From positions 28,121 to 92,120 of the IMG/VR virus record IMGVR_UViG_3300004369_000005: DNA of 64,000 nt, one strand, 5' to 3'. Position numbers and translations under genes: made by a program. Below, piece by piece: positions 5,472 through 63,821 of the stretch. The notes below the pieces were generated by a model. That model was not told where the DNA came from. It was given only the letters and a program-made list of their open reading frames with translations, and made no database searches. Position 1 is the stretch's first letter. Every line of letters begins with the position of its first letter. This DNA is from a virus.

Positions 5472-5496
5472 TATTTATATTTATACGATTATTTAG
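5472..5496 (-). promoter_or_regulatory. cluster of T4 late promoters upstream of gp8
   Basis: Two overlapping TATAAATA (5472-5479, 5478-5485) and one CTAAATA (5490-5496) on the minus strand. Confidence 0.7.
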
Positions 5497-17400: not shown

Positions 17401-18260
17401 CCATCTGCAGTAATATCGCCAATTACGTTATCTACAGTAGCGGAGACATATCCATACTCTTCTGTCTCTTCTTGTACTACTACTTTACCAATTAGATCGT
17501 TAACGTTGCCACTAACAACCTTTACTTTCAAAGCATAGATATTCGTCCAATCAGACTCAGAAGACTTAAGGGTAAAATCTGTTGGTTTGTATACTTCTGG
17601 TTTTTCCCTGGCATCTTTAGATATGATAGTATTAAAGATGAACTTGATAGAACTATCAGTACCTTTTGCCTTATAGAACTTATCAATGTTCTTGATAAGA
17701 GTTCTTTTATCAACTTCACCTTTTAGATACTTTTCTGGGAAAGAACCTAAGTATTGAGATTCAAAATTCTTGACAAATGCATACAGGAAAAGGTTACTAA
17801 TATTGTAAACCTTTACACCATAGTTATGACTTGCTGCATTTGTGCTTGTAAAAGTAGTAGACTCATACAAGTCACCTAATGATGTATTGCCACTTACTCC
17901 TCTATGGCAATTTTTAAATTCAGTTTCTGTTCTTTTTTCATAGAAAATAATCTCATCATTAATTCTGATGTAACCATTCTTCTCTGGGAATGAAGTTGCA
18001 TCATCAACAACGATGATTGTTTCAGTAGCATTAACTGTTACTGATAGTTCTGTGTACTGCTTTAGAAGACGTTTCTCATAATAATCAATATCAGCATACT
18101 TTTGGATATTGTTAATAATATCCAAGGTGCCGCCTTGCACTTCCTGTGCTTCATAATACTTCTCTACAAACTTACTAAACAGTTCGTATTCTGAAGAAAT
18201 GAATTCAGGAAGCTGCGACTCAATTAGAGTTGAAATTCTCTTAGTCTTTACAGCAGGCAT
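5493..18260 (-). CDS. gp7: giant baseplate wedge initiator gp7 (4255 aa) with phycobiliprotein-like inserts and C-terminal 63-aa repeats
   Basis: N-terminus ISTLIESQLPEFISSEYELFSKFVEKYYE; YHYH-like HSPIIGFAYDGNPIYGPYG segment; ITDSFFYQDYSYVVKS...HPAGFKLFG motif; located between gp6 and gp8. Confidence 0.85.
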   Translation of the reverse strand: MPAVKTKRISTLIESQLPEFISSEYELFSKFVEKYYEAQEVQGGTLDIINNIQKYADIDYYEKRLLKQYTELSVTVNATETIIVVDDATSFPEKNGYIRINDEIIFYEKRTETEFKNCHRGVSGNTSLGDLYESTTFTSTNAASHNYGVKVYNISNLFLYAFVKNFESQYLGSFPEKYLKGEVDKRTLIKNIDKFYKAKGTDSSIKFIFNTIISKDAREKPEVYKPTDFTLKSSESDWTNIYALKVKVVSGNVNDLIGKVVVQEETEEYGYVSATVDNVIGDITADGEAIVNLVLAPETVTGEFAISTKTSLTKTLSNTTGIGKRVNVFSTVGWKEKGKILIGEEIISFNDKNVTQFTIEKRGDVTYTHEVGTSVYKPVIIKGADVELLTLGVVYDFKITDAQPYSYPNDKVQISIPGFQTADNKITQTGSNIYRWILNNNLPVKIPTKPTIESQLSPVATDVSAIFADEQYYYITSSSFPSYEIFKESILDNQPIKDQKLLRILRKNAIKTTEKYATPKSEVGLLLNGVRLYGYKDKESIRYGNLESVSVVDQGSGYAKPPFVLVDGVPDLVQANLSGSVVESYTVTSQKVFPVEPTIEVTSGRGAIVRAVVTGDKVTSLIIDNAGEFYSSPPIVRITDRNGKGRFADFTAIIDVDGRITGFEKNSEGVFYNQSTVRVDILPVGKGAKAQVELTEWNFNRYEKYKSVMDDQNGYVFENYNISYEYGYGQFANPKAFRYALNDNITANNQETGTLRHSPIIGFAYDGNPIYGPYGFQDPLDHNSGIARMTTSYILNATRRGGPGINQYPLGTFTNDYTYKHKNGSLDENNGRFCVTPDFPEGVYAYFITINANQVPQFPYILGQNFYSLPVDSNYNSNINQNDIPKKSRRLNELGMPGNGEGVIAEIGSVKAGTVDRVTVERSADVFSVNSKLYFDNRGTDGSQAEALVESVKGKPVEYIDSYENKVVKLTTIQNAYLFEDDTLRQPSSNASGVIVGEVRNDNQIVLKNVIGTFDNTGTFSADIKTFFILLDQKSSFTKGAILSLTDGINPAVAKGEILNGTSSQNTVEIKVTEGDWVPLNQGRITATSILPNKVYRIVELGDTNWDQIGAGLQFQVGQEFTSNANEPTGNGVAEEVGGDYFLQSSDFFNTSGSKPVVLTSLSDNLEPFEVNQSVALIETSSPHGLGIDDKITVDIRPDDSIKTKDYYVRKRLYQNVVLKTPEYESEISDTGIGAFQILNGGADYAPATYTDVALTGGSGTGATATIIVKNNVVSDLQVQGTHSGYRDGVYNNVVISGGDGDGLVASFTINNGQIVGNKVYVKTPGYNYIGGSFIITNDDLPDYIKVFDDETGLVTSTGLEIIATVSATVATVDITNKGTGYRKGDYLSVDDESLFRSSASRSTARLSIYVDHVGFAEGKNKLVLKSTTGLAIGDLIKIGSEILEVTAIDSPTEITVNRGIEGSVDTNHYDGQIVTLYKAQYNFPENFQVGGLSTSGKVLTYDRSTQSVILVYNYGIERNTATSIQNSSTFFDGSTPARLVTVSSVESPNFKFEISEDNISFTPNPNIQIQEFYRYKFDTSHSSLTGTYFDLSPSRAYNLITEEKLASTILPGNTGAFTEVKFGFGPRIAENQYDTKVGTDFTTFYYFDKNGVVTSDDAYLELITDPLQGEKTVIYVTPTRIVYNVPFKPLWDGSGVITYTSKGAFSIGEINTIKVTNLGLNYKKVPVITGVDITPTYKATAEVEFDEKVQVITGITVTEGGSNYTNPVVVITDGDGQGARFKPSVTNGKISIIAVENAGKGYTYKPTVEIIESNAELYVDSNTIGVPQSIKITRNGGAFHLDKTVASSFTSQFTIALKRSSPTEPIGNFQKGEIVTQTNAEGREVFRARVGEFKVGTNLLKLNQLQGIVRNNFPIVSVSNPTNRAAVKAVYFSTLTENITSSYDNAGFYTSARGKVSDRSQRITDSFFYQDYSYVVKSRTPIDQWRDLIKSTTHPAGFKLFGQVDIETDANTRMPAKMPRSGKASIIQLWNPEVNTITSDIKHRVITQSIQKVENNRIRRGPGSIASSEFNFNEFRAYTIRVYNPTPGFYDDVIADGKPWYAKNSFDGVDINDTPYTGANVKTVGTTRFQLRDSFDNPFVPAKVNNIFVTLDGILQEPGVAYTIDGSDIVFSQAPLGNSTKLTGSRLGDVTSYKGMQFYGRYFAFKDTASNNRYLRKIRNIFQRNGRWLDSANQIERNLDFIVSESVGYGKEIYPTLDWSTKGSSYESDLRSILKAYEHDLRFGGNVKTVDYLSYFNEDNTYDYITDNKESSLDIIRYATNLSKLAIRNWDIVINNVNFIQGSRVLTMADTNKVAVGMLISSGGSFPEGTRIASIDSETQITLTRAALSNSGFGGGGAPAGTTTFDGITDGNAVSPTSTAAVEPGDTFTVDEGDTFSVPPSFSGSDTATFYFSGINTGTFYDAANLIAANKAYLQEEVSATIYNNYTLQTTVEKCARDLGYLIDAIVYHLKFGGTEQVVEFGRLYYTNAGYPYGEVLTSINRSVEETAAAIAAWDLLVEKMTLAMRNSLGAGTYTNIAPVTDPDVAIDSLTPACANVASALSSYIQIVKDILAFGTGYVDATPQNLNSEGNWTSLRVYTNYNIIEDPLLPDSECADVISSVDSLFANVTDILNEESVSRSLPDYVDGETKEFELYWEDGTEVNSEEDEDFFITINAVLQQPKYNATYPGGDAYYIDRTVIPNKIVFDVAPIWDQDFGAKSIGEPTAVERVVGLGVGNYKRLTIDYNLVDGVRSGPFLILDMEDRSVQKIDEKEFLFVFVDGVLQREGYSYTISGPNIYFNVPITEQNDVDMRLLYGRDVGQILNIYDYSPNTYYIQGDITFTLDKSTAFAVQAVNRLARNDDNVSYDSWMRDKRYAGYRAIGSKSNGSSFDAPIGDIIDPYIFSEVGNIVTIKARFIVSQYHELVTSEAFGDRYVVRLASIADASITTNVIINQIDRTITRDETGRIRLADRNGKWNATKLGRSYRKTFLPLNSGDTIRVDGESAFRKISALPSIVTSKDYSNSIPSNNSIFGIVGVEAYNGSTEGTGLSVVPIMETVEDENGNQVLTGRIARLEWNQRNYNPNTQPTAYQYYTPPIIQFIPEDGNGGGAQAEVLTLGGHILSVDLINPGSGYTSAPKTVVARGYDILVERDIAVSLVTIGIQPKLDANIKTIASEISIASLPVPLAFSTSAIIAESPRAVFKSLTAIIQVEGDDNLKKDLDCRVVQPLTKFTDSKNKKVQTYLIDMFLGQNEYVSIASTRTPFVKSVSITQTSRKLTTQSQKRIFNDSLGNFNYYETGAYLDLDMTATDTVAYIADTSKFETNGYLMIGDEVVRYYRKLTDRFLNLQRGVDGTTAKPWLAGTFLKQIPKKVEVVSGGVAAIQSVAAVKIKQVDSEVKFNEDNEFAKWFEPRPVSVEQKATLNERVITAQIQSVQAIDSLSYVTAKTQRKTDVGARKVIGLFSTLDFDRTIIRGELQRQNIFFPAPVVTQTVVTAAAHKAITTEVTLLNVFSESVTVKPYASFEKLDSLAWKETLIEQDIKKEAVVPDVKITQIYAKATVRPTVSSTSQISIISDAISIAPRDSFSAIETLAWKETLVKRDIKKEAIQIVDWKVTQTIIKEQVTPSIVSTNTTFLASTEAITTRPSETFVSIDSLTHYTQPDRLEIQKANINLYDWRVEQTIVKATLRPSIVFTSTSVTEAIATSIAPRDSFSAIETLARKETLVKRDIKKDAVQIVDWKIAKTIIKSQVGPSITSTNRIDIISEALSIAPKDSIASFGEMYAIKQPDRLEIQKADINLVDWKVTQTIVKAQVAPTVTSTSHISIISDALSIAPKDSIASFNSLSVGATEIKADIKKDAVQIVDWKIAKTIIKSQVRPTVIATVQANIVTESGGAAGAGAINSEARFESLTRDNIEIKVDIKKSAVRLADWKVSHKQIRSSLAPTISSVSASSIEANAITTRPQETGIFADSVVRTTVNHVEELHHISIHHEVVHNGPTELLRIHPGSGVVDGFVESIFLSDPVPTRDGGFVDITDDHDVLTRDGDLIDVINQLFGSSGSGDYLGNYTTGNAGPTLRNWNYVGYDDGSANASGVSIERFSALFPQMTLADFEDRPNSSYTINGDYFNLANPSIQNAIAITSQNGLISGTISVNNSGDPGAEPTKYFLDSGYLFTSGGSIIQYTSKTGTTFDGCTVYSGPTTISAGDEMINIEVD
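6250..7560 (-). repeat. about 7 tandem ~63-aa (~189 bp) repeats in the gp7 C-terminal region
   Basis: Recurring DIKKxAxQIVDWKxxxTIIKxQVxPxxxST...SIAPxDS; identical DNA blocks at 6535-6578 and 6913-6956. Confidence 0.9.
10240..11590 (-). other. two nested phycobiliprotein-like domains within gp7
   Basis: FYDAANLIAANK...EKCARDLGYLIDAIVYHLKFGGT...PACANVASAL, nested inside WLDSANQIERN...YESDLRSILKAYEHDLRFGGN...SECADVISSVD. Confidence 0.65.
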
Positions 18261-28249: not shown

Positions 28250-28326
28250 TTCTTTACTGGTGCTGTTAGTTCAAGAGTGAGTGTTAGTAGTAGTATGAAT
28301 GAGAAGATAAAGAGTGTACTAATCAT
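28246..28326 (-). CDS. 26-aa membrane peptide (not in ORF track)
   Basis: MISTLFIFSFILLLTLTLELTAPVKK fills the gap between two ORFs and overlaps both. Confidence 0.5.
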   Translation of the reverse strand: MISTLFIFSFILLLTLTLELTAPVKK

Positions 28327-38648: not shown

Positions 38649-39319
38649 TTATATGCTGGTCCCCACGCCCACGCTACAAGTGTACGTCTCTTACCAGATA
38701 GAACATGATCTACCTTGTGATTCATCATCGATGGGAATACAAGAATATCTCCCTTGTTTAATCTAACAGTTTGGTAATCAATCTCCCCTTTACGTAGACA
38801 AGCAAACTGAAAATCTCCTCCTTCGAAGTCTTCACCCTGTTGATCTAACATAATAGTCATCGACAGTTTTCTGCACGTTCTAGGATCTCCTGGTGCCATT
38901 AGATGATCGTTGTGCCAATCATAGTGACCCCCAAAAGTTTCTTCATATACATCAGAAGTAAGATTCTCTGGTTCTTCATACTCACTGTATTGAACTTCTT
39001 CAACACCAGACAGTGCGAATTGCCAATCTGGATCAGACTCATTAGCACTAGCAAACTGCAACTCAACTAATGACAAAAAGAAAGGATCACCCAACCATGA
39101 GATCTTTGACTTTCTGATCTTTTCGTCTATTGATTTGTCATCATTAACTGCTCCTGGTTGCATTACAAGATCCATACCCTTCAGGCGTTCTTCGATCAAT
39201 TCGATAGCATCATCAGGTAATGTAGCAACTTTATATTTTTCAAACTGTTGAAACTGAAAGTCAATTATGTTTTCTCCTTCAGCATCATATAGAACGCTAC
39301 CTTTAGAAGCAACTTCCAT
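38645..39319 (-). CDS. 2OG-Fe(II) oxygenase (prolyl-hydroxylase-like)
   Basis: IRKSKISWL; YDWHND; RKLSMTIML; FEGGDFQF; FPSMMNHKV...GKRRTLVAW. Confidence 0.9.
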   Translation of the reverse strand: MEVASKGSVLYDAEGENIIDFQFQQFEKYKVATLPDDAIELIEERLKGMDLVMQPGAVNDDKSIDEKIRKSKISWLGDPFFLSLVELQFASANESDPDWQFALSGVEEVQYSEYEEPENLTSDVYEETFGGHYDWHNDHLMAPGDPRTCRKLSMTIMLDQQGEDFEGGDFQFACLRKGEIDYQTVRLNKGDILVFPSMMNHKVDHVLSGKRRTLVAWAWGPAYK

Positions 39320-47729: not shown

Positions 47730-50700
47730 TCAGAGTTCCGTGAGCCACCAACCGCGTAGGTTAGATGGGATAGATCTTTCATCTTCTGCACCAGGAGCAT
47801 CAGTTGGACCGACATAAATCAATCCGAAGGATGCGTTTCTGGTCTGTACGATTAGTTCTCCACTATCCCAAGCAACAGAATTGAATCCGCTACCTTCTTT
47901 AATGGTAGAACCTGTGATGTCACCCTGAACTGCAACTGACAAACCACCAACCTTGAGTGCTCTAATGACTAACTGAGAGTCATAAGATAGGTTTCCACTG
48001 CATTCAATGAATCTAATCATATCACCAGTTTCAGCATAATCTGGTAGATACAGAACCATATTGGTGCCTGCAGGATTATTTAGAATGTAGTTGTTATTAG
48101 GTTGTAATGGGGATCCTTGTGTCTGACCGATACCTGTAGCAGATTGTTCTACGTAAGTATATCTACGACCACCATTTCTAGTGAAGTAACGCTGAATACC
48201 GAAGGTATCGATAGAACCATCTTGATAGATCTTAAAGTCTCTTGGACCTTCAGTTCCACCAGTTCCAGCATTACCAATGTTATCGATATGGAAGATTGGT
48301 GTAGTTGCATCACCAAACGCATCGCCATCATTAGCAATTAATTTGCCTCTGACATAGAGTTGTTCTCCAACATCAACAGATCCCGTGTCACCATATACTT
48401 TAAACTTAAGTTCTTCAGTGCAGTTACCCCATGCTTCACAATTATCTTCGAAGACGTTGATGTCACCATGAATGAAGGCATGACCCTTGAGGAACATACC
48501 ACCCTTCCTAGTCTTGGCGTCTAGAATTGCACCATCAGCGGGGTGATCGTCATCGTTAGCAACGTTGAAGATTAGAGTCTCTCCATCGCAACCATACATT
48601 CTCAATTCACCACTGTATAGTTCTAAAGCATCATGAATAATAGTTGTACCACCACCAAATGTTGCGGTATAGAAATCGCGAGGATGATCTCCAATAAAAT
48701 CAGGATCAAGAACATTAAGTGCTTGCTGAACTGATTGTGTTGCTTTAGATAGTCTTACAGAATATGCAGAATCTTGACCGTCAATACTATCTGGATAGAA
48801 CCATTCAGTAGTTACAGCAGATGTAATAGGATCAGTAGTGCTAATTCTAAAGAAGTGTGGGGAGTCTAGTTTGTTACCAACTATTCTAGAATCTGCTAGT
48901 TTAACCTGAATTAGGGAAGCAAGGTATGATGGGTTAGCAGGTGTTCTATTAGTTGCAGGGATGTCCTCAATTAGTTTGCTGCTTAACTTATACTTGTAGA
49001 TCTTAACAACTGTTGCTCCACCACCAGTGAAGTTAAGTTTACTAGTTCCTTCAAGTCCTCTACCACCATTTGGATAAGAAGAAGCAGGATAATCAGCATT
49101 GTAGATTGTAGGCAGATAACCCTGACCGCCAGAAGTATAAGGATTATCGGTGATAATCATGATCTCACCGCGACCTGATGATACTCCAGCACCTTCATAA
49201 ACTGCGATCATGTCGCCCTTCTGGAAGACGCTGATGTCATTAACAGGAATGTTGACATCATCTACTGTAAATCCTACAGAAGTTGTAGTAATTGGACCAC
49301 CAATGTTAAGGGTGAACTTACTAAATCTGTAACCATAAGCAATACTATTCTCAATAGTATGGTTGACTGGAGTAGAACTCCACCATCCACCATGTGCGAA
49401 TACTGCACCTTGTGTAGTACCAATAACAGTGTCACCATTACAGACATTAACGTCAAATGTGGTGCCATACTTGTTATTGATATAGAGGTGGTTATCAAGT
49501 GATGGATCGGGACTTGGATATGTAAAGTCTCTATCGCAGAGACCATTCAAGTTCAGTGTTCCGTTAACATTGAGTAGTGATGTGCTTGTACCATCACCAA
49601 TGGTTACATCACCAGTAGTAGAATCAACAACGAATACATCATTTGCAGTTCCACCAGAACAGTCAGAAGAAATTCTGAACTTAATTTTCTCTTGACTTAG
49701 AGGACTTTGAATCTGTAGAACTTCACCAACGTCATATGTCGTTGGATCTGGTGCTTGTGGTGTGCTGTCACGACCCAAGATAATATAATCATTGAGTTTT
49801 AGACTGCTACCAATTCTGGAGAGATATACATTAGTGATAGACTGCTGGTCGAATGGAATATCCTGAGTAGTCCAAGTAGCATCAAACTGTACGTTACACT
49901 TGTAAACAGAAGTTCTATCTGGGTGATCGTTTCTTACGCCAGTAAATGTACCAAATGGTTGTCTTTCAACAACAATGTAGTATGGTCTGACATTAATTCT
50001 AGGTGTAGAAACAACCTTAACAAATTCAACATGAGTTGAAATTGATGTCGCAGAACCTGTAACATATGTGATTCCAACAACACCGTAGTTATCAATATTA
50101 GCACCAGTGTTTGATCGCTGGAACAACTGGAACTTAACACCTGCCTGCTGTGCTGCAACAGGAATGTTAACTTCCATCTTAACGAACTGTCTGTTCGTAT
50201 CAGCATCCATAAACTGAACGAACTGTGGTGTTGTTACCAGATCTCTAACACCAGCTGGGACAATATCACCAATAGTAACCCATGTATTGCCATCATCAAG
50301 AGAGTATCTTAGTTGTAGTGCTTCATTTGCCAATGCAGGAGAAACGATATCTGGGAATTCTCCACCATTGCTATCAGTTCCGACGTGAACGTCGAATTCC
50401 ATCTTGGAAATAGCACCAGTAGATAGGAATGATCCATCAACTGCATCAAGTGTTACGTAACGAGCTCCACTGCCTTTGAAGTGGATGTATGTCTGACCTG
50501 TGTTAAATCCGCCACTGGATCCTATACCAGGACCAGAGTTATCAAAGAGAACACCCTGATAATCATTAACAAATGATGCTGTTGGATCTGCTTGGTCGAT
50601 ATCAGCAGTGTCTAGAGCAACACGGGACTCGCCAACACCTTCAGGAGAATCAATCAATAGAATGTCATTCTCACGGAAGTATGACTCACCATCAACTAGT

Positions 50701-53700
50701 GGAGCATTCAATAGTGGTAGGTAATACTGATTACCAGTTAGTTCAGGTAGCTCCTGAGGTTCAACCTGTGGGTTGCCACCAATTTCAGTGATTTCATTCT
50801 GATATTGAATACCACCCCAGTTTGAACTACCAACAGTATCAATCTCGTTATATCCTGCTTCTCCAGTCGTCAAACGTGCTACTGTAATAATATCAACGTT
50901 GTTGTTGAATAGACCGTCACCAAGTTCACCAGATAGGTGCTCCATATTGGAAGAACCAGATCTGTTTCTGAATGCAGAGAATGTGAATGCATCCAGACCA
51001 CCACAGAGAACGAGGTTGGAGTTAACTTCAGCAGTTGCATTGACAACCAAGTTGTTTCTAATAGTGGTTGTACCACCCTGACCTGCCATAGTCAGGTTAG
51101 AAACGTTAGTAGCGAAGTTGAGGATGTTGGTTACAGAGTTACCACCAAAGAAGTCAACTGTACCAGCAGTAGATGTTAGTGTTAGACTATCAGTAAGTCC
51201 TCTTCTGGTGATAGGACCACCATTAACATCAGCACCAACACCAAGGATAATATCACCAGCAACCTTAAATGACTTGGTGTCAATCGTTGTTGTTGATAGA
51301 GTCTCAGAAGGTTGTGCGTATGCACCACCAATGACTACCTTAGAAATATTAGCGTTGTTGTCATCAGGAGTATGACCGATGTAGATGTTACTGTGTAGTG
51401 ACTTATTACCAAGGAAGAAGAACTGATCTCCTTCTACATCATCACCAAGGAAGAATCTAGACTGTACCTTGTTGGCGTTACCAATGTAAATGTCTTGAGA
51501 TGACGTAGTGGTGTTACCAATTGTGATTAGTTCAGCACCATTTGCAAGTGCAAGGGTGTTAGTGTTATCAACGATTGTCGCTGCAGTTACATTGTTAGCA
51601 ATGTTAACTGTACCAACGAATGTAGCATCATCAATCACATTGAAGATACCAGTTGTAATACCAGTTCTGATCTCAGCAGTATCAGTTCCATCTACACCAG
51701 GATGGTTGTAGACTTCAATGTCTCTGTGGAATCTTACATCTTCAGTGAAACGAGCATCACCTTGAACTACCAGTGCTCTGTCTAGTTCTGCATTGGTGAT
51801 GTTAACACCAACCTTACCATAGTTATCTGGTCTGCCATTTTCAGAAGAAGCAGTAGTTAGTGTAGAAACACGGAATACTGCTTGCTTAGCATCAATAAAG
51901 GAGACGATAGTAGAACGCTGTGCGTTGTTGAGGAGATCATCAGAATAACCAACAACAAATGCATCAGATACTTTATCTACAGTACGTGTAGCGAATGAAG
52001 CGTTGTTGATCCAACTATCCTGAGTCGTCTTACGACCAGTGATGAATGTTGTACCAATAACTTCAAGGTTTGCACGAGGATCAGTGTTCTTAGGTTGTAC
52101 CCAAGCAGTATCATATGCCTCATGATCGACTCTGTTAAGAGTGTTAATACCAAGTTTGAAGTCACCCCAGGTATCACTATCAGTTCTCATTACTTCAGAA
52201 CCGATTACACCATATTCCTTCCACTTGTTCTCCGCATAGAACATTCTTCCATTTGGAGATGGAGCAGCATTGAAATTAATGATGTCTGTATCCCAGTCGT
52301 AACTACCAACAGGGATGCTTACCTGACTGTTAACAGGAACAATCTCGATAAAGAGTTGATTACTCTGACCGTTGAATGCATACTCCGCATTGTTGATGAT
52401 CTTCCAGTTTCCGATGAAAGATGCATATCTAACAATGTTCTCAAGCTTAATAGTTGAGGTAGGAGTAATTGGTGGGGTAAAGTCGTCAAGTTTAATTGGG
52501 TTGTTTGCTGGATCGATAAAGGTGATCGTAGCAATGTAGGTGGAACCAGATTGCTCGATTTCAATAGCATCAATGTTAGCATTATCAATTTCAGTGAAGA
52601 TGTTTGCATAGATCCAACCAAGAGAACCAGTCTTATTAACTGCATCTCCCTTGAGAAGCATATCTCCTGGTTCTGGTAGAACACCACCAGAGATAGTAAC
52701 GATAGTTTCACCACCTTGCTGCGTTTCTTGTGGTACACCACCATATACAACATACTGCATGATGTTAATGGAAGTTCCACCATTAGCAATGGTGAGTCCC
52801 TGGTTTGGTGCTACATTACCATTTGAAACTGCACTACCTGCAGGTGCATGAATTAGAGACTTGTAACCAAGTCCTTTACCGCGTCTATTATATTCAAATA
52901 CAGCAGAAGAAACTGTGTTCTGACCGATGCGAATATGTCCGCCTTCACCAATACCATCAATCTGATCGAAGTTGAGGTATTGATCTTGTGGTTGACCGTT
53001 AGCACCAGTTGAATTTACTAGAGAGTAAATTAGTAGTGGAGTTCCTTGCTGAACGAGTTGATTGTCAGGAACGTTGATTTCAACAGGGGAGAGGAATCTG
53101 CTGACTAGCTGACCGTTGTCATCACCAACAACTGTGATGTTCTTATTGAACGTTACAGGTGTATCAAAGGTAGTAACGAGTTGTCCGATTACGTCATCCT
53201 CGTCTCCATCATCGGCAAGAACTGCTCTATCGATGAAGGTTTCTTCACCAGTGATAGCATTGATTCTTCTGTTACCGATGTAGAGGTCACCCTGGGAGTT
53301 AATACCCGTGTAGAAGACGATACCAGCATCTTGCTTCTTCGACTGTGCGTAGAAGTCCTCTTCGGGTTCTAGGACGATCTCCTGACGGGCAGGAAGACCT
53401 GTTGAGTAGTTACCAGGACCGAAACCAAGGTATTCAAACGTGTGGTTACCAGCACGAGCGATAGATGGTCTACGGAGTTCAACATAGTAACGCTGATCTG
53501 AGAGAACTGTGCTATCACCAGCAATAGGAATCAAGCGATCTTCCGAACCTGAAGTTGCATTACCTTCCTGTGCCTGAATTCTGTTATCAATTACATTACC
53601 ATCAAAATCACTAGTAGTATTAGTATACTTGTTACTGATGAATGCTGGTTGATGTAGTAGATCCGTAACGAGTTCTCTAGTTACAGAGTGCTTGGTATCA

Positions 53701-56700
53701 TTAACAGTAACCTTACCATGAATATAGTTGTCAGCAGCAGAGAATGCCTGAGGTGGATCAATTAGAGCACTGTAGTATGCTTTTTCTGCCTCACTTGTAC
53801 CAGAACTCTTAAACCAGAGAGGATCGTTTCTGTAGTTTAGAGGATACAGTTTACCAACTGGTTGTGAGAACTTAAACTTCTGGAAGTTACCACCAGCACC
53901 AGCACCTTGTGGGAATGGTGAGATGTTACCGCGCAAGCAAGTTAGATAGTAGATACCATCTTGCTGACCTGGGATTCTCTTCTGAAGTTCTTTACTATCA
54001 AAGATGTAGAAGGTGTCTTCAATGATACCTGCATCTTCGACAGATGCAACATAGTATTCAATACCAGTGTCATCTTGGATTGTATCACCAGGAGTAATGG
54101 TATAAACGTTAGCGCCGTTTTGCTTGTAATAATACTCTGGGAAATTTTTTCGGATATGTGTCTTCAGAGGTAGCGATTTACCCATATCCTGGTCTTCCAG
54201 CATATCAGCAAACACAGTTGTGTCGCCTTGTGTCTGAGAGAATCTAGTGTTGTAATACTCACTATACTCTAGGGAAGCAGTGCCCTTAGCACCACTGATA
54301 CCCTTGATGATGAGATAGTGATCTCCACCAACACTATAGTATCCATGGATAAATGCACTACCTGAAGAGTTACCAGCAAATGTTACCCTGTTTGCACTAG
54401 GACCACTGGATAGACTTTGAGTTTTATTAGTGTTGAAAGCACCACCCTGAGGAGAAGAAATCTTGACAGTTGTAAAGATTTCATTTCTCAAACCACTGAA
54501 GTTGACAGTATCAACACCATGATCGAATACCGTAATTTCTAGATACTTAATTTCTGGATCTAGTGGATCTTCAACATAACGACCAGACTGGATGCTAGCA
54601 GCAATACCAGAAGAGAATCTGGCGACACTGGTATAGTTTGTATCCTGTGGTTCACCTGTTAAAGGTCTTCTAAATGGATCATATCTTTCCTCTTCTTTGA
54701 GGGTATCATCTAGATCAAAGTCACGCTGAGTGAAACCAATGTATTCAGCAGGTTGCTGTGGGTTGATGAAACGTGCTCCATATACGTTACCAGATACAGG
54801 CTTGAGGAGTAGTTTCTGTGGTACTAACTTACGAGTATCGTCAGTTCTTGTCTTAATAACAAATCCGTTGATAGGATCTCTAGCGTTCTCAAGGTACTTA
54901 GGAATGACATAACGTAGTTTATAAGTTCTCTCGTCCGCTTCACGAGTATCACTAATACGCTCATACCATGTATCAGTAGTGCTTTGCTTACCAGCAAAGT
55001 CACCTTGGTGAATTCTATAGAAGATCTCCTGCTGAACGATATCAGTGTCGCCAGATAGAGCACCAGTAATCTTATCCTTAACGTTAAGATACCACTTACC
55101 ACCCTCAGCATCAGAGCTAGAGAATGTTGGATCGAAGCGCATTGGACTGAGCTTCTTGTTAGCAAATACTCTGAATGGTTTTCTGCTACCACCAATAGGA
55201 ATATCAAATTGAATTGGATTGACACCACCTTCAGTGTAAGTGCTGACCTGCGCTCTTGCTTCTGCTTCAGTTTTGTGAACTGTGAAGATCTTAGAAGTCT
55301 GATACCTTACATAGAATTCCTTATAAGGATTGATTCTACCATAATTAGGATCGTTGGAGTTAGTTACAGCAACATCAGGATCGTTAATAAACTGAGATGC
55401 AACTGCAGGTAATTCACTACCTTCTACTTCTCTAAAGAATACTTTCTGAATAGTAGTAGCAGAGTTTGGTTTATCGAAGATATGTGCGATGTCAGACTCA
55501 ATACCACCCAAAACAGTATCAGTTAGAGTACACTGATAGTTGTGTAGATCATATTTGTCATCGATGATGAACTGATAGAGATCGATCTCTACATCTGGAT
55601 CAATAGATTCTGTCTCAGATGCATAGATGTAGATACCTGCTGCTGCATTCTCCTTAGACGATGCAAGCATCAACTTGGTTGCATCACTACCGTTGAAGTA
55701 TGTTGTTCCAGAATAGTCAACAGGTTGTGTTGCTCTACCAGGAGCAATTACATAGTATACTTCATTAGTATCAAAACCATTTGGTAGTCTAACCAGACGC
55801 TTGTCAACATCTACATACTCGTTACGATCTGGATCAAAGCGAGGACGTGGTACAAGTCTGACAGGAGTTCCAGTCTCGAAGTTGTGTGCTTCAGGAGATC
55901 CAGTACCTGTCTTATCAATAGTAAATACAGTCGCTCTAGATGCTAGTAGTGAGGTATTGAAGGTTGCTTCCTGTCTGGGAATAGTAGGAACTTCATTACC
56001 ATTAGCATCAGTGTAGGTTAGACCAGTGTTGATGATAGTAGTGATGTTCTGAATAAGAACTTCAATAGCATCTGCAACAGCAGCACACTCGCGTTGTGTA
56101 GGTGATGTAGTGGTGTCCTGAATAACATCAGGATTTTCTCCTTCTGGTCCAACAACTACAGTCTCAGGGAGAGTGTCAGCCCATGCAGGAGTCTCGAACT
56201 TAAAGTGTAGATTAACAGTACCAGTTGCACCTACAGGAGTTGCATTCTGTGTCTTACCAAAATCTAGTCTAGATCCTCTTACACCCAGTTCAATAAACTG
56301 ATCGTCAATAATATTCTTAACGAAAGTATTTTCTGGAATATTAGTATAGGTAGGTACAGCAGTTGATTGTAGAAGACCGTTGACATATGGAGTAGGAGAT
56401 GACTGATATTCAGTAACACTCATGCCAATGACAATACCTCTAGTGTCACCAACGTTGACTCGTGCTGCTGTTGCTGGTGCAGAAGTAATTTCACAGTTAT
56501 AAGCAACAAAGTCAAAATTACGCATTGCTGCAGTTGCCAACTGACCGACATAGTTCCATGCATCGGTTGTTTCTACTGCTTCTCCATCGATGTAATCTAG
56601 TTGAGCTCCAACAAAGTATGCTTCACCTGCCTGAATGCTGTTGATGTTACCACCATAACGTAGGTCATTGACGACTGCATCAACGATATAAGAAACGTCT

Positions 56701-59700
56701 CTAAAGCACTTAGATGCCTCTGCATTGGTGATAAAGTCTCCGCTATTAACAGGAGGTAGATCATCAATTGAACCCTCTGCAATGGCATCCATGAAGATGT
56801 CAAAGAGAGTTTCAATAGTAGAACGAACGTTAGCACAATCCCACTCACCAGTGCTGAGATCAGGAAGATCTTGGATGTTACCAGCGTAGAGAGCATCACA
56901 AACAATACCAGTTAGAGTATCGATTGTCTGTAGAACGTCAGAACAATTGCCTAATCTATACTCTTTAGGTTGTGTGATTGCTGCGGCAGCAGGATATGAA
57001 TGACGCTGCTTATAACCATCACGAGCACAAGTAAAGGTCAGAGCATTAGGTTGTACTCTAATACTTGTTCCAGTGCTAATGCTATGTGCTCCAATTGTTA
57101 CTATAACATCACCTGTTTCAGGATCATATGTAGCATTAGTTGGTGTATATGTTGTGTTGACAGATGCGGGTGCTTGAACTTCAACAGTCTTAGGAGTTAC
57201 AGCAGTGATAATCATCTGCTGACCTGAGTTAGAATCAGATGTTCTAGGATAGGTATGCTCGGTAGCATAGTTATCCATAGCACATCTAAAGGTAAAGCTG
57301 TTATCAACAAACCTTACAGTGTTTGATGTAGTTAGACCATGTGGAGCACCAAAGTATAGTGTTACCTTACCAGTAGATGTGTTATAAACAGCATTGCCTG
57401 GCGTATATGTTACACCGTTATTATCTACAACAGCATCATTAGCGACACTAACAAAGCGATGATCGTAATCACCACCAACAACAATACTATCTGCAAGTGC
57501 AGTAACAAAACTATGTTCGTAAACTAGATTGTTAGATGCACCAACGTTGAAAGTAATAGTGTTTGCAGTTGTTGCAGTGATACTAGTTGCAGTCTCATAT
57601 GTTGGATCTGGAGTTGCTCCTGGGAAGGATGCCTCAGCAGTTACAGTACCAACACCAGTGCTGGTTGTACCGATTGCATCATCAAGGATGCCAAACAGGT
57701 TGTAGATAGCAATAGCAACAGACTGACACTTAGGTAGGAGACTTGTCTCGCCATTGCTGATGTCAGAGTCCCAATCAGTTACGATAGTATAATCGATGAA
57801 CTGCTCTTGTGCTGGGGTTGGAGACCAGTTAGTAGGAGTTATAACCTCGTTACGCATTACTGCAATAGCAAGATCTCTTACTTCTTGGAATACTTTCTTC
57901 GCTTCATCACGCTCAGCATCAATGAATGTCTCAACTTTCCATGCAGTTCCATCCCACGCCCATCTGATTCCCTCTTCAGTATAGAATCCAGAAGTAGGAC
58001 CAGTTTGTGTATTACCAACAACTGGTGCTGTTGGGAAGTCTAAACGGAAGTCTGCTGGATAGAACTCATTAGAGATATAGATGTTAGCAGCTCTTAGAGT
58101 CTTGATGTTTCCACCAAACTTAACGTCCCACATTACTTGTTCTAGGACGCTATACACATCATCCAGACAATCCTGCTTAGTGTTACCCTCGGAAGGAGTG
58201 TACTGGTTGTATGTAACAAGCATACGCTGATATGCTTCTTCTGCAATAAATTCCTTGTTAGCAAGTACAAGGTTATATGCATCAGCGTGAATGTCTGAGA
58301 AGACGGCAGGATCACCCTTCTGGTCTAGAGTTAGAGCAGGAAGACCAGCAATTTCTCTGACATAGTATTGATTGTTGACTGCACGGTTCATCAAATCAGC
58401 AGCACGTTTGAATGCTGTGATAGAAGGACCGACTTCGAAGTCAACACCATTTGCTAGCAAAGTGTTTGCATTTGCAAAGTATTCTTTAGTTGCAGCGATG
58501 GTATACTCGTTACCACCGAACCAGAGATCCTGTGCGATAGCATCAACAACATGACCGATGTCTCTACGGCACTTAGCGTTACCAGTAGTTCCAAACTCAG
58601 TGTTGTATAGTCCAGTGTTGACTACAGGAAGATCATTTAGGTTCTGATCGTTGATTGCATCTACAACGTAGCTTACTAGGTTATCAATGTAAGAAACAAC
58701 ATCTTGACATGCATTAGGAGAAGTTACAGGAACGTCATTACCAGAACCAACCTCATAGTTAGGAGCACCAGGAGTTACACCTAGATCCTTATAATATAGT
58801 TCATTGCGAATTGCCTTCGCCATGTACTCTTCTGCTTCTTGGAAAGCAAGAATTGCTTCATCTTTCTCAGGAGTTACAATGCCATTAGTAATAGGTACGC
58901 CTGATCCATCGAAGTATTGTTCGATGAACTTAACTGTGTGACTGTTACCTTTGTGGAACATGTCAACAGAGATAGCATCGATAAAGTAACCGATGTCACG
59001 AGCACACTTGGCAGCGCCTGCAGGATATGATCCTTTGTTGAGAGGTGTGGGTCCAATGTTCTCCCAGTCTACCTCATCATCTGGACCACGTAGAAGAGAA
59101 CCTAGATTGTTGTTGCCGAAGATTCCATCAACAATACTCCAGAGGTTATCAATGGTAGACTGAACGTCGCTGCAAAGATACTCATTAAGGTGATTGTCAG
59201 TATTAGCACCAAAAGTAATGCAGTTGTTTATTGCACTAACAAAACTATGTGGGTATACATCAGCAGGATCGCTAGCACCTACGTTTACTGTGATCGTGTC
59301 AGCAGTAACAGCATCAACACGAATATACTTACCAGCAGCAGGGTCAGTAGCACGAGGATAAGCAGTTACTTGAGTGTTGCCATCCATGGTGCAGGTGAAT
59401 GATAGTCCACCAGTTGCAATCTGAATATGATCGCCAACCTTTAGATCGTGGTTAGCAATAGTAAGTACAGAATTGCCAGTAGCTCCATCATAAGTTGCAT
59501 TATGTGGTGTGAAAGATCTTACAATCTGACCGTAATCAGAACCAGGAGCATTGTCAGGGGTTACCTGTAGATTCTTAAAGTACAGTTGATTGGAAACTGC
59601 CTTCATCATCATATCTCTTGCCTTCTGGAAGATGGCACGACTCTCTAGTAGTTCACCATTCAAACCAGCGGTGATCTGAGTGTTCTCATCTTGGAAGTAT

Positions 59701-62700
59701 TCTGCAGCAAATCTATAAGAATACTCATTACCAGACATAAACATGTCTAGTGAAATTGCTTCGATGAAATAGTTAATATCTCTTAGACACTTATTCTCAC
59801 CAGCACCAGAATTAGCATTGTCTAGAGGGAAGTTTGCTAGTTCACCTAGACCAAACTCTAGAATCTGAGTAACAGTGAAAGTTAAAGTATCGATAGCAGA
59901 CTGTACGTTAGCACAGGATGCTGGGTTATCATTGTTACCTAGGTTGCTACCAGGAGATCCAACACCACCAGGGTTCTGACCTGGGGTTGGGTCGCCAGTT
60001 ACACTATTATCTTCATATACAGCACCAGGAAGATTGTTGGTGATAGCAAGCTTCATGGTGTCTCTTGCTCTGTTAAATGCTACCTTAGCAGCAGCAATCT
60101 CACCAGGATCGTTGATACCATCAGCAATGTACTGACCTGTGCCCTCATCAAAATACTCAGCACCAAATAGTCTAGAATACTTGTTAAATCCTCTGAATAG
60201 GTCAAGAGAAACAGCATCGATGAAGTGACCGATGTCACGCTTACACTTAAACTCAGTAGAATCAGATGCTGGTGTAGCAGACTGCTGCATGATATTCCAT
60301 GCATCATCAATGATGACCTGTCTGTTGTTCTGAATCAAGCGATATGCATCAGCAAATCTAGACTGCGAATCAGTCTGAGTATCACCAGGGAAGTAGAAGT
60401 CTGGGTTCTGAATTGCAACCTGTGCTAGAGCACGATCAGCAATCTCTTCCTTGTTCTTAACAATTAGACGGTATGCATCTGCAAGTCTAGATCTGGAATT
60501 TGTTTGAGCGTCACCAGGGAAGTAGAAATCTGTACGCTCTGCAGCAATCTTAGCGAGTGCTCTATCAGTAATTTCTTTACTGTTACGACGAATAAGTCTG
60601 AATGCATCAGCATAACGTGACTCAGCAGTCTCGTTTAGTTCACCAGGAATATAGAAGTCTGGATGATAAACAGAAATTTCTGCTAGTGCTGCGTCAAGGA
60701 TAAACTGACGGTTAGCAACAATACGGTTGCGAGCATCCTTATAACGACCAGCAGGATCTTCTTTATTGCTGCTATCAACGGTAACATTCTTACTATCAAA
60801 GATCTGATTACCATCAGCATCTAGTGATTGAGAAGAACCATTGCTTCCTGGGTTAATACCATATGGAGCCAGAATGCTGTTAGGATCAGTATCCCAGATA
60901 TCTGCTTTAACATCTAACAGGTTAGCAATTGCTTTCTTACACAGATCTCTTGCTCTTCTGTATGCAAACAGTGCTGCTTCTTCTTCTCCTACTAAACCAT
61001 TCTCTAGTGGAACCTGTTGTCCGAAGGTAGGTGAGTTTGGATCTTCATCTAGAACAAAGTAGAACTTAGTAGCATCAATGATGTTTCTGTTACCACCATC
61101 TCTAAGGTCTTCTGCGATAGCATCAACAATGAAACCAATGTCACGCTTGCACTTAGCTCCGTTAGTATTACCACCGTTTCCATCATAGTTAGGATATGCA
61201 ATCAGCATCGATGCATATGCTTCCTCAACAATCTGGGAACGGTTGTCAAGAATCAGGTTACGTGCGTCGAAGTAACGGTTAGCAGCAGGATTTAGACCAG
61301 GGTTAACATAAGGAATGTTCTGGAGTCTAGGATACTTCTCAAAGATATAACCAAAGACTTCCTCCTGGATCATGCGACGGTTGCTTTCGATTAGGTTAGC
61401 AGCGTCGATGTTAGTGGAGTTAAGATTAAACTCCTGATCTCCAGTTGGATTGAGTACAGATCCTTTAGCAATATACTTAACAAAACCAGTTGGTTCTAGT
61501 GTTGCTTGATACTCACTGATGTTATTGAGACTATCAAGTTTGACATATAGTTTATCTTCTGTCTTACCACCAATTCTATAACCACCAATGGTAGCAGCAG
61601 GACGATTGAGTGGATTGTCTAGATCAGTACCACCAAGGTATAATCTAGTGCGGTTCTCTTGTCCGTTAAGTTGCTCTCTGCTACCTTGAACGTCAATGGT
61701 GTAGTAAAGGACTTTCTCGGTATTTGTCTCACTTGCTTTAACCTGCTGAGGAGGAATAATGTCAGTGATATAACCTGCCTTATCTTGGTTAAAGGAGAAT
61801 CCTTTGAAACCAATAGCATGAAGTGATGTATTACCGAAGTTGGAGTTAGAGTTGGTGATCGACATGTCACCGCCACTTTCCATCAGGAAGTGATCTGCGA
61901 AACCAACAGCGAAGATCGAAACGTTCTGGATGAATGCATCTTCCGAAGCACGAACGTGGAAGTTTCTCCAGTCATCCTTCCAGTAAGAATCACCCTTCGC
62001 GTGATAAGGAACTGTAGCAAATGCGTCTACTAGTGATGCTTGGTTCCAAGTGTTAGCATACTCATCATAGCGGATGAATGCTCTGTCGTCTCTCTGGAGC
62101 GAAACACCCGTGTACTGAGCGATAACCATGGATTTAAATCCAGTGGCTTTTAGACCATTCGCCCAGATACCACAAATACCCCAAACAGAACGGATTGAAA
62201 CGTTGAAGACATATGGAGATGCAGACTCAACAGAATCAACTTCCGCGAGAACCTGTGCGTTCTGACCTAGTGCAGGAGAAGAATCTACGTTAACAATCTT
62301 CTCTGAGAAAATTCCGTTACCGATACCAGATGCAACGAAAGGAACACGATAGGTGAACTTACGAGGATCATTCTCATCAATATCATAGATGTCCCAGAAA
62401 CCTTCAATCTCGTCATCAATCTCAGTATTAGAGATAGCAACAAACTGACCTGCAAAGTATCCGTGGTCTACCTTAGTAGTAACCTCAATCTGTGTTGTAG
62501 ATGCAGGGATTGTGTTATCTGAAGTTGCATCAACGAACTTCAAAGATTCAATAACACGAGAGTCAGATAGAGGTCCAACGATTCTGTTCTCTTGAACGTT
62601 GAAATCGAATTCGCCAGGTTGGTTGATCTCTGGTTGATATCTCTCAAATGCTTTAGCAATCTTTCTGTAAAAGAGTTGCAGTTCTTCTTTATCTGCGTAC

Positions 62701-63368
62701 TCGAATACAGTTAGTTTGTGGTGAGAGAAGTTAGGTGGAGTTAGTCTACTAAAGTCAGTAGGGTCAAAGTAGACTTGACCTCCCTTATTTGGATCATAGA
62801 GAGGAGATTCTGCAGTAGTCTGACCGTCCTTAATAGTAAACTGCCAGAAGTAGCAACCACCAGTTACGTTAAAGATAGCAGAACGAGGAACAGTTACCGA
62901 CGCAGGGTCAGGAACATAGAGAGGACGAATTGTGGTACGACGAAGGTCATAACCTACAAGTGATGAACCCCTAGGGATAATAGCACCACCCTCAGTGTTG
63001 TTGAACTTCCAAAGGATGTTATTTACATCACTAATGTCTAGGTTAGGGTCAGCACCCCAAGCATTAGTACCCTGATCGAATAGGAATTGTTCGATTTCAC
63101 TGGTGTCTTCTACACCAGGACGGTTGTCAATATAGTGAATACCAGGCATCAGCATAATGCTGAACTGGTCGAACCTATCGTTCGAAGGACCAGGAGTATA
63201 AGAATACCTAGCAACTTCCAAGAAAGCACGCTGAATACTCTTAAATGGAGTTACAGGTGAGTTACCTCTGTTAGATAACGAATCTGTTGCGTTAAAATCG
63301 TCTGGTGAAACATAAAGATACTTACCAGTTTTTGAGCTGATAAGGTTATCTAAACGTGTTAAAGGCAT
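47730..63368 (-). CDS. giant virion structural / long tail fibre protein (5212 aa) with seven nested phycobiliprotein-like domains
   Basis: N-terminus [29 protein letters not shown]...[11 protein letters not shown], typical of cyanomyovirus giant fibre proteins; late promoter upstream; followed by tail-collar genes. Confidence 0.8.
   Translation of the reverse strand: [5212 protein letters not shown]
56030..61420 (-). repeat. array of seven phycobiliprotein-like helical domains (split and nested)
   Basis: 7 x DAxxLIxxN, 7 x (K)CxRD-like...G(G)N and 7 x CxxV segments. Confidence 0.75.
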
Positions 63369-63470: not shown

Positions 63471-63821
63471 CTATCTGATAATAATAAGTTGCGGTAGATC
63501 TACCATACCATGTTCTAATAATCGATTGCAATTAGCACATATTGCAGCACATTTGTCTATTTCTTCTTGCAGTGTTTTGTAACTTGCAGATTGCAACAAC
63601 TTGGATACACTATGCTTTTTAGGGGTTGGATCTACATGAATTAAATCCATTACGACGTGCGGAAATTCTTTATTGCAGATAATGCAAGGATGACTCTTTG
63701 CTTCATCTACTATCTGCTTTCTCCTCGCATAACTAATCTGATTTTCTTTACGAGTCTTAGAATTTCTTCTAGCCCACTCACGCTGATACTTACGATTTTC
63801 TTCTTTATCTTTATAAGGCAT
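63471..63821 (-). CDS. HNH-endonuclease-like protein
   Basis: CIIC...MDLIHVDP...EEIDKCAAICANCNR; lies next to a tRNA. Confidence 0.7.
   Translation of the reverse strand: MPYKDKEENRKYQREWARRNSKTRKENQISYARRKQIVDEAKSHPCIICNKEFPHVVMDLIHVDPTPKKHSVSKLLQSASYKTLQEEIDKCAAICANCNRLLEHGMVDLPQLIIIR

Follow-up and report, generated by a model that had tools for sequence, protein, structure and literature searches.

The tail-fibre-type protein of 5,212 aa encoded in the window (the whole stretch of DNA analysed, 64,000 nucleotides from a marine cyanobacterial virus) contains seven domains that, judging from profile comparisons and a predicted structure, are true relatives of the light-harvesting pigment proteins of the host, the phycobiliproteins (PBPs). 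The explanation that best accounts for all the data is that the fibre carries nested globin domains of PBP lineage, which most likely bind bilins, a reading that we place at a probability of about 45%. PBP-fold domains had already been proposed in an earlier note on this DNA, and were borne out by Pfam, a PDB profile search, hhalign and the predicted structure. The nesting of the domains, a second Cys aligned with beta-153 and the presence of cpeT beside the gene in relatives go beyond that note.

The fibre protein and its cores

The giant protein matched phrog_4527 ('short tail fiber protein') and phrog_529 ('tail fiber protein') in PHROGs, and the 'tail protein' of S-WAM2 showed 55% identity to it across the repeat region. 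The seven motif Cys codons listed in the earlier note, together with the 22-residue motifs quoted for them, were all found in place (61149-51, 60243-45, 59787-89, 59004-06, 58569-71, 58167-69 and 56706-08; Table 1). Six of the seven copies read C-x-R-D and the other reads DCLDD. C.RD occurs eight times in the entire protein, compared to 0.11 occurrences expected from its composition or from 2,000 shuffles. The alpha-phycocyanin bilin motif quoted in the note proved identical, letter for letter, to that in the CpcA of a Synechocystis genome, and the beta-phycocyanin helices A to E that it quoted were correct except for one residue (IDSVN, not IDAVN).

Table 1. Coordinates of the fibre gene, its domain pieces and related features in the window
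Feature	Coordinates	Strand	Description	Evidence or remark
Giant ORF	47730..63368	-	5,212 aa (P0001), tail-fibre-type virion protein	ORF list and translation
HNH-type endonuclease ORF	63471..63821	-	immediately upstream of giant ORF	PHROGs
Nest of seven PBP-fold domains	56004..61418	-	aa 651-2455, nest string ((x((((x)x)x)x(x)))x)	HMM parse (helix I, core, helix II)
Helix-I elements, six of seven	60261..61418	-	PBP helices A/B; R-[YF]-x-D-A-x-x-L-I-x-x-N; aa starts 654, 699, 876, 919, 962, 1005	
Seventh helix-I element	58191-58295	-	aa 1694	
Helix-II elements, span of all seven	56013..59921	-	PBP helix H; C-x-x-V-x-S-A-I-D-T-L	
Core 1 (helices E-F-G)	60924..61157	-	Cys740, KCKRD	alone: PF00502 26.8 bits, E 5.9e-6
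Core 2	60024..60251	-	Cys1042, KCKRD	within innermost contiguous domain 59832-60368 (copy that was folded)
Core 3	59574..59795	-	Cys1194, KCLRD	
Core 4	58785..59012	-	Cys1455, KCARDIGY (8 residues same as CpcA)	
Core 5	58359..58577	-	Cys1600, KCRRD	
Core 6	57819..58175	-	Cys1734, variant DCLDD (Asp for Arg); long insert between helices F and G	within contiguous domain 57645-58301; PF00502 12.8 bits
Core 7	56499..56714	-	Cys2221, KCFRD	
Second giant ORF	5493..18260	-	4,255 aa, gp7 baseplate slot	neighbours gp6-, gp25-, gp8-like genes
Inner contiguous copy, 4,255-aa protein	10395-10892	-	EKCARDLGY...GGT	
Outer core, 4,255-aa protein	11184-11579	-	degenerate, without Cys	

Homology and predicted fold

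The N-terminal half of the protein scored 61.7 bits (E 1.1e-16) against the PBP family profile PF00502, whose gathering cut-off is 22.2 bits. When the copies were searched singly, only copies 1 and 6 gave a score (Table 1), and the other five scored nothing. In PDB profile searches, the matches listed were PBPs only, the best being C-phycocyanin alpha (E 4e-6, covering its residues 38-104), and hhalign against 28 real PBPs rendered probabilities of 93.9% in local mode and 96% in global mode (E 2.4e-9). The likeness in sequence is limited to helices A/B to E, and helices F to H match by fold only.

The contiguous domain containing core 2, one of the seven copies, was modelled with AF2. The model (pLDDT 89.2, pTM 0.88) contains helices A, B, E, F, G and H. 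All the Foldseek matches listed for it were PBPs, with a probability of 1.00 and TM values of up to 0.66. With VIA-align, the eight best of 48,161 chains belonged to the PBP family (Z of 15.4 to 12.7), the first of them superimposing with an rmsd of 2.3 A over 140 residues; lower in the ranking came sensor globins (Z of about 10-11) and haemoglobins (6-7). A chance or convergent motif arising in a helical repeat, with no PBP ancestry, would be compatible with the identity to PBPs of just 14-20% and with the failure of most single copies in Pfam on their own, but it is contradicted by the PF00502 score above the cut-off, the PBP-only PDB matches listed, the hhalign values of 94-96% and the fold ranking, and we consider it hardly credible.

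The phage domains share with PBP subunits (PF00502: CpcA/B, CpeA/B and ApcA/B) the globin-type helices A, B, E, F, G and H, a C-x-R-D that opens helix E and stands at an equal distance from GG[NT], an Asn within helix B, a Pro that closes helix B, and a helix-H N-cap Cys where beta subunits have Cys153/155. However, whereas PBP subunits are antenna proteins of 160-180 aa, the phage domains belong to a virion protein of 5,212 aa, are interrupted by other domains and have helices F to H that are unrecognisable by sequence. They also lack the X/Y helices, as the earlier note had suspected: structural and profile alignments begin at PBP residue 31-38, and nothing precedes helix I. Hence neither an alpha-beta monomer nor an (alpha-beta)3 ring is to be expected and, given the covalent nesting in a fibre protein as well, the phage domains are unlikely to build (alpha-beta)3 discs and phycobilisome rods. 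In a tree, 66 phage domains and the 28 PBPs formed separate clades, so the phage domains do not derive from a cpc, cpe or apc gene captured recently.

The second-best structural match to the model was the PBP-like domain of ApcE (PDB 4xxi; Z of 14.3), a PBP fold within a large multidomain protein, with a B-E loop that takes a large insertion. This is the same loop that receives nested insertions in the phage domains. In ApcE, however, there is a single PBP domain, the Cys of which occupies a different position; the protein binds its bilin by autocatalysis and belongs to the phycobilisome, not to a virion.

Nested architecture

The earlier note had described seven copies with matching N-terminal segments. 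Both of the segments that it quoted are present, but the copies are not simple repeats, since their pieces are interleaved. The HMM parse found seven N-terminal helices (helix I), seven cores and seven C-terminal helices (helix II), one of each per domain, and the 21 pieces form a perfect nest instead of a tandem array. In terms of the PBP fold, helix I corresponds to helices A/B, the core (C-x-R-D ... G-G-N) to helices E-F-G, and helix II to helix H; the helix-I elements align with alpha-phycocyanin residues 38-64.

The nest follows a simple grammar (D -> I D* core D* II), in which the pieces of one domain enclose complete domains only. By chance, seven pieces of each kind would yield a valid nest with a probability of 1.9e-5. 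The grammar was also valid in complete relatives with 2, 3, 4, 5, 6, 7 and 9 copies, and the relatives that failed it did so mostly at contig ends; the nest string was identical in S-WAM2 and S-RSM4. Once the domain boundaries derived from the nest were adopted, the pLDDT of the AF2 model rose from 70.9 to 89.2. The seven-deep nest is thus established by parsing the sequence, and we infer that the protein also folds as one. Such a nest would have originated by repeated insertion of whole domains into the B-E or G-H loop of an older copy. Seven-deep (up to nine-deep) self-nesting of one fold is an extreme case of domain insertion, pigment aside, and illustrates a route by which giant phage fibre proteins grow.

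Conservation of the bilin-site residues

The helix-E Cys of the seven copies aligns with the Cys-x-Arg-Asp of CpcA and CpcB (beta-82/alpha-84). The family is large: clustering at 50% identity gives 1,368 clusters, and a single protein can hold as many as 36 matched stretches. Over 1,404 cores (150 cluster representatives), the Cys was conserved in 99%, the Arg in 95% and the Asp in 100%, and C-x-R-D was present in 1,323 cores, compared to about 25-35% identity outside the bilin-site residues. These three bilin-site residues rank as the best conserved in the family. Some families have no Cys in the domain other than that of C-x-R-D, so a disulfide does not explain the conservation of the latter. 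Strong conservation was also observed for the Asn of GGN (99%), Tyr77 (98%), Glu92 (96%) and Asn113 (99%).

All seven helix-II elements start with a Cys (aa 1152, 1399, 1554, 1881, 2142, 2178 and 2428), which is invariant in A3. This Cys aligns with CpcB Cys153 both in the global hhalign alignment and in a separate MAFFT alignment, and it is probably the beta-153 counterpart, a match that rests on alignment and fold, the sequence signal of the region being weak.

It is quite possible, if somewhat short of even odds, that the domains descend from a bilin-binding globin but have lost the pigment and serve in the fibre as compact helical modules that space or stiffen it; folding, packing of the nest or contacts between fibre subunits would then account for the conservation of Cys, Arg, Asp, GGN, Tyr, Glu and Asn. 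The phage domains have neither X/Y helices nor the partner subunit by which the bilin pocket is closed in PBPs, which counts against bilin binding and would fit an apo scaffold, as would the divergence of helices F to H past sequence recognition. The Arg, which binds the propionate in PBPs, is replaced in copy 6 and in many gp7-slot copies (DCLDD, CEDD, CKTD), and the Cys is lost from one copy in the second giant ORF, which also counts against bilin binding. The Asn of GGN, Tyr77, Glu92 and Asn113 have no obvious PBP counterpart, which suggests constraints of the domain's own. On the other hand, the residues most conserved of all are precisely the three that contact the bilin, for which we know of no structural role in PBPs besides the chromophore; the second Cys falls exactly at the other PBP attachment site, and where an invariant Cys stands alone in an exported protein of the virion, packing hardly accounts for it.

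The cysteines might instead serve another chemistry, such as disulfides between fibre subunits or nested domains, or binding of a metal or a different cofactor, in which case the likeness to the bilin site would be historical. The domain family of the window has two conserved Cys per domain (helix E and helix II), cross-linking is frequent among virion proteins, and helix E bears several acidic residues that are conserved (Asp at core positions 6, 12 and 17). The chromophore centres of beta-82 and beta-153 in phycocyanin are roughly 34 A apart and, with the model at 2.3 A rmsd, this distance makes an intradomain disulfide implausible. Moreover, the helix-E Cys is kept in families without the helix-II Cys, and the helix-II Cys in copies from which the helix-E Cys has disappeared; the two thus lack the covariation expected of a pair. 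We regard this alternative as distinctly improbable.

Distribution and proximity to cpeT

The domain was present in 379 of 50,697 phage records, all of them cyanophages. Its occurrence in phages of hosts that make no bilins, which the earlier note had named as an argument against bilin binding, was not found at BLAST sensitivity among these records.

T-type bilin lyases serve Cys of the beta-153 type, which the phage domains keep, and cpeT is viewed as an auxiliary metabolic gene whose product acts on antenna proteins of the host. The orthologous gene has cpeT 0.7-1.5 kb upstream, on the same strand, in five relatives (S-WAM2, S-PM2, S-RSM4 and two metagenomic ones). In S-WAM2, the same 116-aa ORF that is HNH-type in the window stands between cpeT and the tail protein gene; since the contig ends 179 bases past this ORF, cpeT may lie just beyond its end. 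The 92-kb record, which is 48% complete, contains no cpeT, bilin reductase (PF05996) or haem oxygenase (PF01126) gene. The adjacency is weak evidence because gene order is generally conserved in T4-like phages. In addition, CpeT was detectable in 66 phage records, versus 379 with the domain, and its absence from most domain-bearing phages would suit an apo scaffold. Phage CpeT and the bilin genes ho1, pebS and pcyA occur only in cyanomyoviruses (PMC10452541). No description linking cpeT to a virion protein, and no paper on PBP-fold domains in a cyanophage fibre, was found in the searchable literature.

Possible function in the virion

For bilin-binding domains, the following sequence of events may be proposed. 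While the virion is being assembled in the cyanobacterial cytoplasm, the helix-E Cys would receive a bilin through a thioether bond, and the adjacent Arg and Asp would hold the propionate and the pyrrole nitrogens of this bilin, as they do in PBPs; a second bilin would be placed on the helix-H N-cap Cys, the site of T-type lyases. Attachment would be carried out by phage CpeT where present, and otherwise by host lyases or autocatalysis, and would give rise to a pigmented virion appendage. We know of no report of coloured cyanophage preparations. In view of the homology and the residue conservation, the domains may carry a covalently bound chromophore and the virion may be pigmented, with light sensing, photoprotection or mimicry as conceivable roles, as the earlier note had put forward; a purely stabilising role of the cofactor is equally compatible with the data.

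A precedent outside the antenna is provided by BBAG-1 and BBAG-3, distant PBP relatives that keep C-X-R-D and attach bilin without a lyase (Rockwell, Martin and Lagarias 2023, PMC10151467), and thus a lone C-X-R-D globin can be a biliprotein. By description, these bilin biosynthesis-associated globins resemble the phage domains in the C-X-R-D; unlike them, they occur in bacteria as small separate proteins, with bilin reductase and haem oxygenase genes next to their own.

S-PM2, P-HM2 and other phages need light to adsorb, a requirement that does not depend on host photosynthesis; for S-PM2 and P-HM2 it is unexplained, and tail fibres are one suspect (PMC6628666). Speculatively, light could change the conformation of the fibre or baseplate, which would explain the requirement for cyanomyoviruses. 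In the broadest form of the proposal, which we consider rather unlikely, cyanomyovirus fibres and baseplates would be biliproteins, with bilins derived from phage ho1/pebS/pcyA products and partly attached by phage CpeT, acting as a virion photoreceptor that gates adsorption or baseplate triggering. If so, the phage bilin genes would gain a phage-encoded substrate and light-dependent adsorption an explanation, and this would be the first case of a virus particle that incorporates a pigment protein of the photoreceptor type. The matter thus bears on the light requirement and also on the puzzle of cyanomyoviruses, including those of phycobilisome-free Prochlorococcus hosts, that carry cpeT and bilin synthesis genes. 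Both puzzles, as well as virion pigment and light sensing, are now directly testable on purified virions of cultured phages.

Further copies in a second giant protein

Two further copies of the domain were found in the 4,255-aa protein of the window (aa 2228-2680), nested as (x(x)), the inner one contiguous and with the motif Cys and the outer one with a degenerate core (Table 1).

Phycobiliprotein homology of the giant protein

The earlier note had placed potentially bilin-binding, phycobiliprotein (PBP)-like domains in a cyanophage tail protein, and the seven cysteine motifs that it listed were all found, at their Cys codons, in the translated giant ORF (Table). Six of the seven read K-C-x-R-D-[IV] and the other D-C-L-D-D, and the C.RD pattern occurred 8 times in the whole protein versus the 0.11 expected from its composition. 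The alpha-phycocyanin motif quoted in that note matched CpcA of a Synechocystis genome exactly, and the string KCARDIGY is common to copy 4 and this CpcA.

Comparison of the giant protein with PF00502 yielded 61.7 bits (E 1.1e-16), above the cut-off of 22.2, and copy 1 by itself scored 26.8 bits. When a profile of the seven window copies only was compared with all PDB sequences, the top 36 matches were PBP alpha subunits. Deeper profiles, built from 41 and 34 sequences, rendered 108 and 114 matches, respectively, at E up to 1, with only PBPs among the matches listed; the best was C-phycocyanin alpha (E 4e-6), covered over its residues 38-104, which correspond to helices A/B through E. When the domains were compared by hhalign with 28 authentic PBPs, taken from the genomes of four cyanobacteria, the probability was 93.9% for the local alignment (E 1.6e-7) and 96% for the global one (E 2.4e-9, 127 columns). 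Only the first half of the domain carried a PBP sequence signal. The PF00502 match already sits unremarked in databases, as precomputed Pfam labels on two fragments show, and no report of a phage structural protein containing a PBP-like domain turned up in the full-text literature, an absence that is no proof given that most subscription journals lay outside the search.

The giant protein is presumably located in the virion, judging from annotations and synteny. PHROGs assigned it to short-tail-fibre and tail-fibre families, short-tail-fibre-like, tail-collar-like and fibre-assembly genes lie downstream of its gene, and its closest isolate relative, 55% identical across the repeat region, is a 'tail protein' of the Synechococcus phage S-WAM2. 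The region equivalent to its N-terminal domain in P0109, a metagenomic relative, comprises 275 amino acids that share 36% identity with a structural protein from PA5oct-like jumbo phages of Pseudomonas and match a Vibrio phage as well; thus, the fibre attachment end is common to phages far beyond the cyanophages. These matches were rejected as instances of the PBP-like domain itself, since they covered only the N-terminal residues 3-275 and not the repeats.

Coordinates of the features in the window
Feature	Position	Strand	Size or residues	Remarks
Giant ORF	47730-63368	minus	5,212 residues	Tail-fibre-type protein
N-terminal domain of giant protein	61449-63368		aa 1-640	Assigned to PHROGs 529 and 4527 (tail fibre)
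Innermost contiguous domain (folded)	59832-60368		179 aa	
Beta-rich module, after core 3	~59180-59500	minus	aa ~1290-1395	In giant ORF; one copy
Beta-rich modules, between helices II-4 and II-5	~56950-57650	minus	aa ~1905-2140	In giant ORF; about three copies
Pfam Reelin_subrepeat-B match	50085-50495		aa ~4292-4428	33.6 bits (cut-off 27); C-terminal half of giant protein
HNH-type endonuclease ORF	63471-63821	minus	116 aa	Upstream of giant gene
Second giant ORF	5493-18260	minus	4,255 aa	gp7 baseplate-wedge slot, between gp6/gp25 and gp8
2OG-Fe(II) oxygenase gene	21202-21768			
2OG-Fe(II) oxygenase gene	28319-28879			
2OG-Fe(II) oxygenase gene	38645-39319			
Tryptophan-halogenase-like gene	37521-38648			

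Nested arrangement of the domains

The giant ORF contains seven helix-I pieces (R-[YF]-x-D-A-x-x-L-I-x-x-N), seven cores and seven helix-II pieces (C-x-x-V-x-S-A-I-D-T-L). Written with '(' for helix I, 'x' for the core and ')' for helix II, the order of the 21 pieces is ((x((((x)x)x)x(x)))x). This order conforms to the grammar D -> I D* core D* II, as do only 7,752 of the 399,072,960 orders in all, so that the chance of a valid nest is 1.9e-5. Parsed in this way, the four helix-I copies that follow one another at aa 874-1036 each open one of four nested domains. The piece string was identical in S-WAM2 and S-RSM4, and among 66 related IMG/VR loci the complete genes, with 2, 3, 4, 5, 6, 7 or 9 copies, formed valid nests throughout, the failures being mostly genes truncated at contig ends. 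The validity of the nests across relatives thus indicates that whole domains were inserted into the B-E or G-H loop of older copies. A complex prediction on the three split pieces of one nested domain (helix I-e, core 3 and helix II-2) gave no answer (score 0.01), which speaks neither for nor against the nesting.

The G-H loops of nested domains also hold beta-rich modules of about 100 aa, with motifs such as LSFTCTMDG...YPR and Y-x-H-S-F-V. A similar module is present in an unrelated metagenomic family, P0057.

Predicted fold of one copy

Taking a preceding helix plus the core of copy 5 as one contiguous unit resulted in a middling model (pLDDT 70.9, no Foldseek match, VIA Z at most 4.4), because these boundaries were wrong and the preceding helix is part of another domain. 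Only the innermost contiguous domain was folded as a complete copy, together with 66 contiguous homologues, and it reached a pLDDT of 89.2 and a pTM of 0.88. Its helices (residues 3-14, 16-30, 36-59, 63-70, 88-109 and 153-172) match, in order, helices A, B, E, F, G and H. For this one copy, the structural comparison suggested in the earlier note bore out the proposed fold, with only PBPs among the Foldseek matches listed (probability 1.00, TM 0.55-0.66). In a search independent of Foldseek, over 48,161 chains, PBP-family chains occupied the first eight places, with Z scores of 15.4 for phycoerythrin beta (rmsd 2.3 A over 140 residues), 14.3 for the PBP domain of ApcE and 13.7 for allophycocyanin. 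Lower values were obtained for photocobilin globins (11.3), globin-coupled sensors (approximately 10-11), RsbR (8.2) and haemoglobins (6-7). The structural alignments start at PBP residue 31-33, and the domain thus lacks the X/Y helices, in agreement with the first reading of the sequence.

Conservation of two cysteines

Both bilin attachment sites of PBPs have a counterpart in the phage domains. The helix-E Cys aligned with alpha-84/beta-82. The Cys of helix II, located at the helix-H N-cap, was placed opposite CpcB Cys153 both by the global hhalign alignment and by an independent one made with MAFFT, a match with which the ends of the structural alignments are consistent. The core residues were strongly conserved. 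In 323 unique copies from close relatives, the values were 97% for Cys, 81% for Arg (with Asp in 17%) and 98% for Asp; in 1,404 cores from 150 cluster representatives, whose copies are otherwise about 25-35% identical, they were 99% for Cys, 95% for Arg and 100% for Asp. The HMM detection is somewhat biased toward motif-bearing copies, but it nonetheless recovered one Cys-less copy.

Either cysteine can occur without the other. The second is retained in copies devoid of the first, and in some families (P0109 and P0057), with tandem, un-nested domains, helix II has no Cys and that of C-x-R-D is the sole Cys of the domain. An intradomain disulfide between them was considered and rejected: the two sites are far apart in the PBP fold and each Cys persists without the other, and a disulfide pair is therefore no explanation for the conservation. 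Some other cysteine chemistry seems improbable.

We narrowly favor bilin binding by the domains, with a probability of about 0.45. The bilin would be bound covalently during assembly in the host cytoplasm and would come from host or phage enzymes; a role of the pigment in light-gated adsorption is speculative.

Association with cpeT

In five relatives, two of them metagenomic and the others S-WAM2, S-PM2 and S-RSM4 (three isolates from three genera), cpeT, which encodes a T-type bilin lyase, is on the same strand as the orthologous giant gene and 0.7-1.5 kb upstream of it, separated from it by nothing other than tRNA genes, small ORFs or homing endonucleases. The beta-153-type Cys is the site served by T-type lyases (PMC10452541). 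The link between cpeT and the domain is not general: CpeT was detectable in 66 phage records versus 379 with the domain, and Syn9, S-RIM2, ACG-2014b and ACG-2014d lack cpeT yet have 3-4 copies with both Cys, the Arg often being missing. Bilin attachment without a lyase is known in the bilin biosynthesis-associated globins (BBAGs), which are related C-X-R-D globins (PMC10151467).

The main rival to bilin binding is an apo scaffold that has retained these residues for structural reasons of its own; we regard it as a serious possibility, short of an even chance.

No cpeT, bilin reductase, haem oxygenase or psbA was found in the 92,120-bp IMG/VR viral contig (48% complete), of which the window is the final 64 kb. 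For cpeT this is uninformative, because the contig stops 630 bases upstream of the giant gene, at an endonuclease ORF matching the one that S-WAM2 has there. In S-WAM2 and S-RSM4, the same HNH ORF and tRNA genes stand between cpeT and the tail protein gene, and mobile elements seem to insert preferentially at this place. In S-PM2, a 2OG-Fe(II) oxygenase gene lies directly between cpeT and the giant gene. The same contig carries, outside the window, petE (plastocyanin, 107 aa; G000:C1:751-1074, L080), for which an exact-word scan of the genome collection found no close relative. The three oxygenase genes and the tryptophan-halogenase-like gene of the window (Table) lie among structural genes.

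Distribution and relationships of the domain

By tblastn, the repeat region is restricted to cyanophages: of 50,697 phage records, 379 were matched, and each of these was either a phage of Synechococcus or Prochlorococcus or a marine single-virus record. When 1.84 billion representatives were searched with a profile, 1,368 clusters were recovered; in the best 150, the proteins measured 329-7,903 aa and had as many as 36 matched stretches. Other metagenomic families (P0109, and P0057 at L074:7646-8113) have as many as 36 PBP-fold domains, which for the most part stand in tandem and are not nested; a related-locus search in IMG/VR found none for P0109.

In a FastTree phylogeny of 66 phage domains and 28 PBPs, midpoint-rooted, without BBAGs and built on low identity, the two groups formed separate clades (support of 1.0 for the PBP clade). 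Because of this separation, the idea that a cpc, cpe or apc gene was recently taken up from the host was rejected, and the phage domains appear to be an old branch of the PBP family.

The second giant ORF contains two further PBP-fold copies, nested as (x(x)). Its inner copy (10395-10892; EKCARDLGY...GGT), a contiguous domain, is the most phycocyanin-alpha-like of all, and its outer core has lost Cys and Arg. P0004, a 256-aa fragment of this cyanophage protein family, comes from a 770-bp contig and is filed with NCBI under the name 'hypothetical protein, partial [Acinetobacter baumannii]', probably due to contamination of that assembly.
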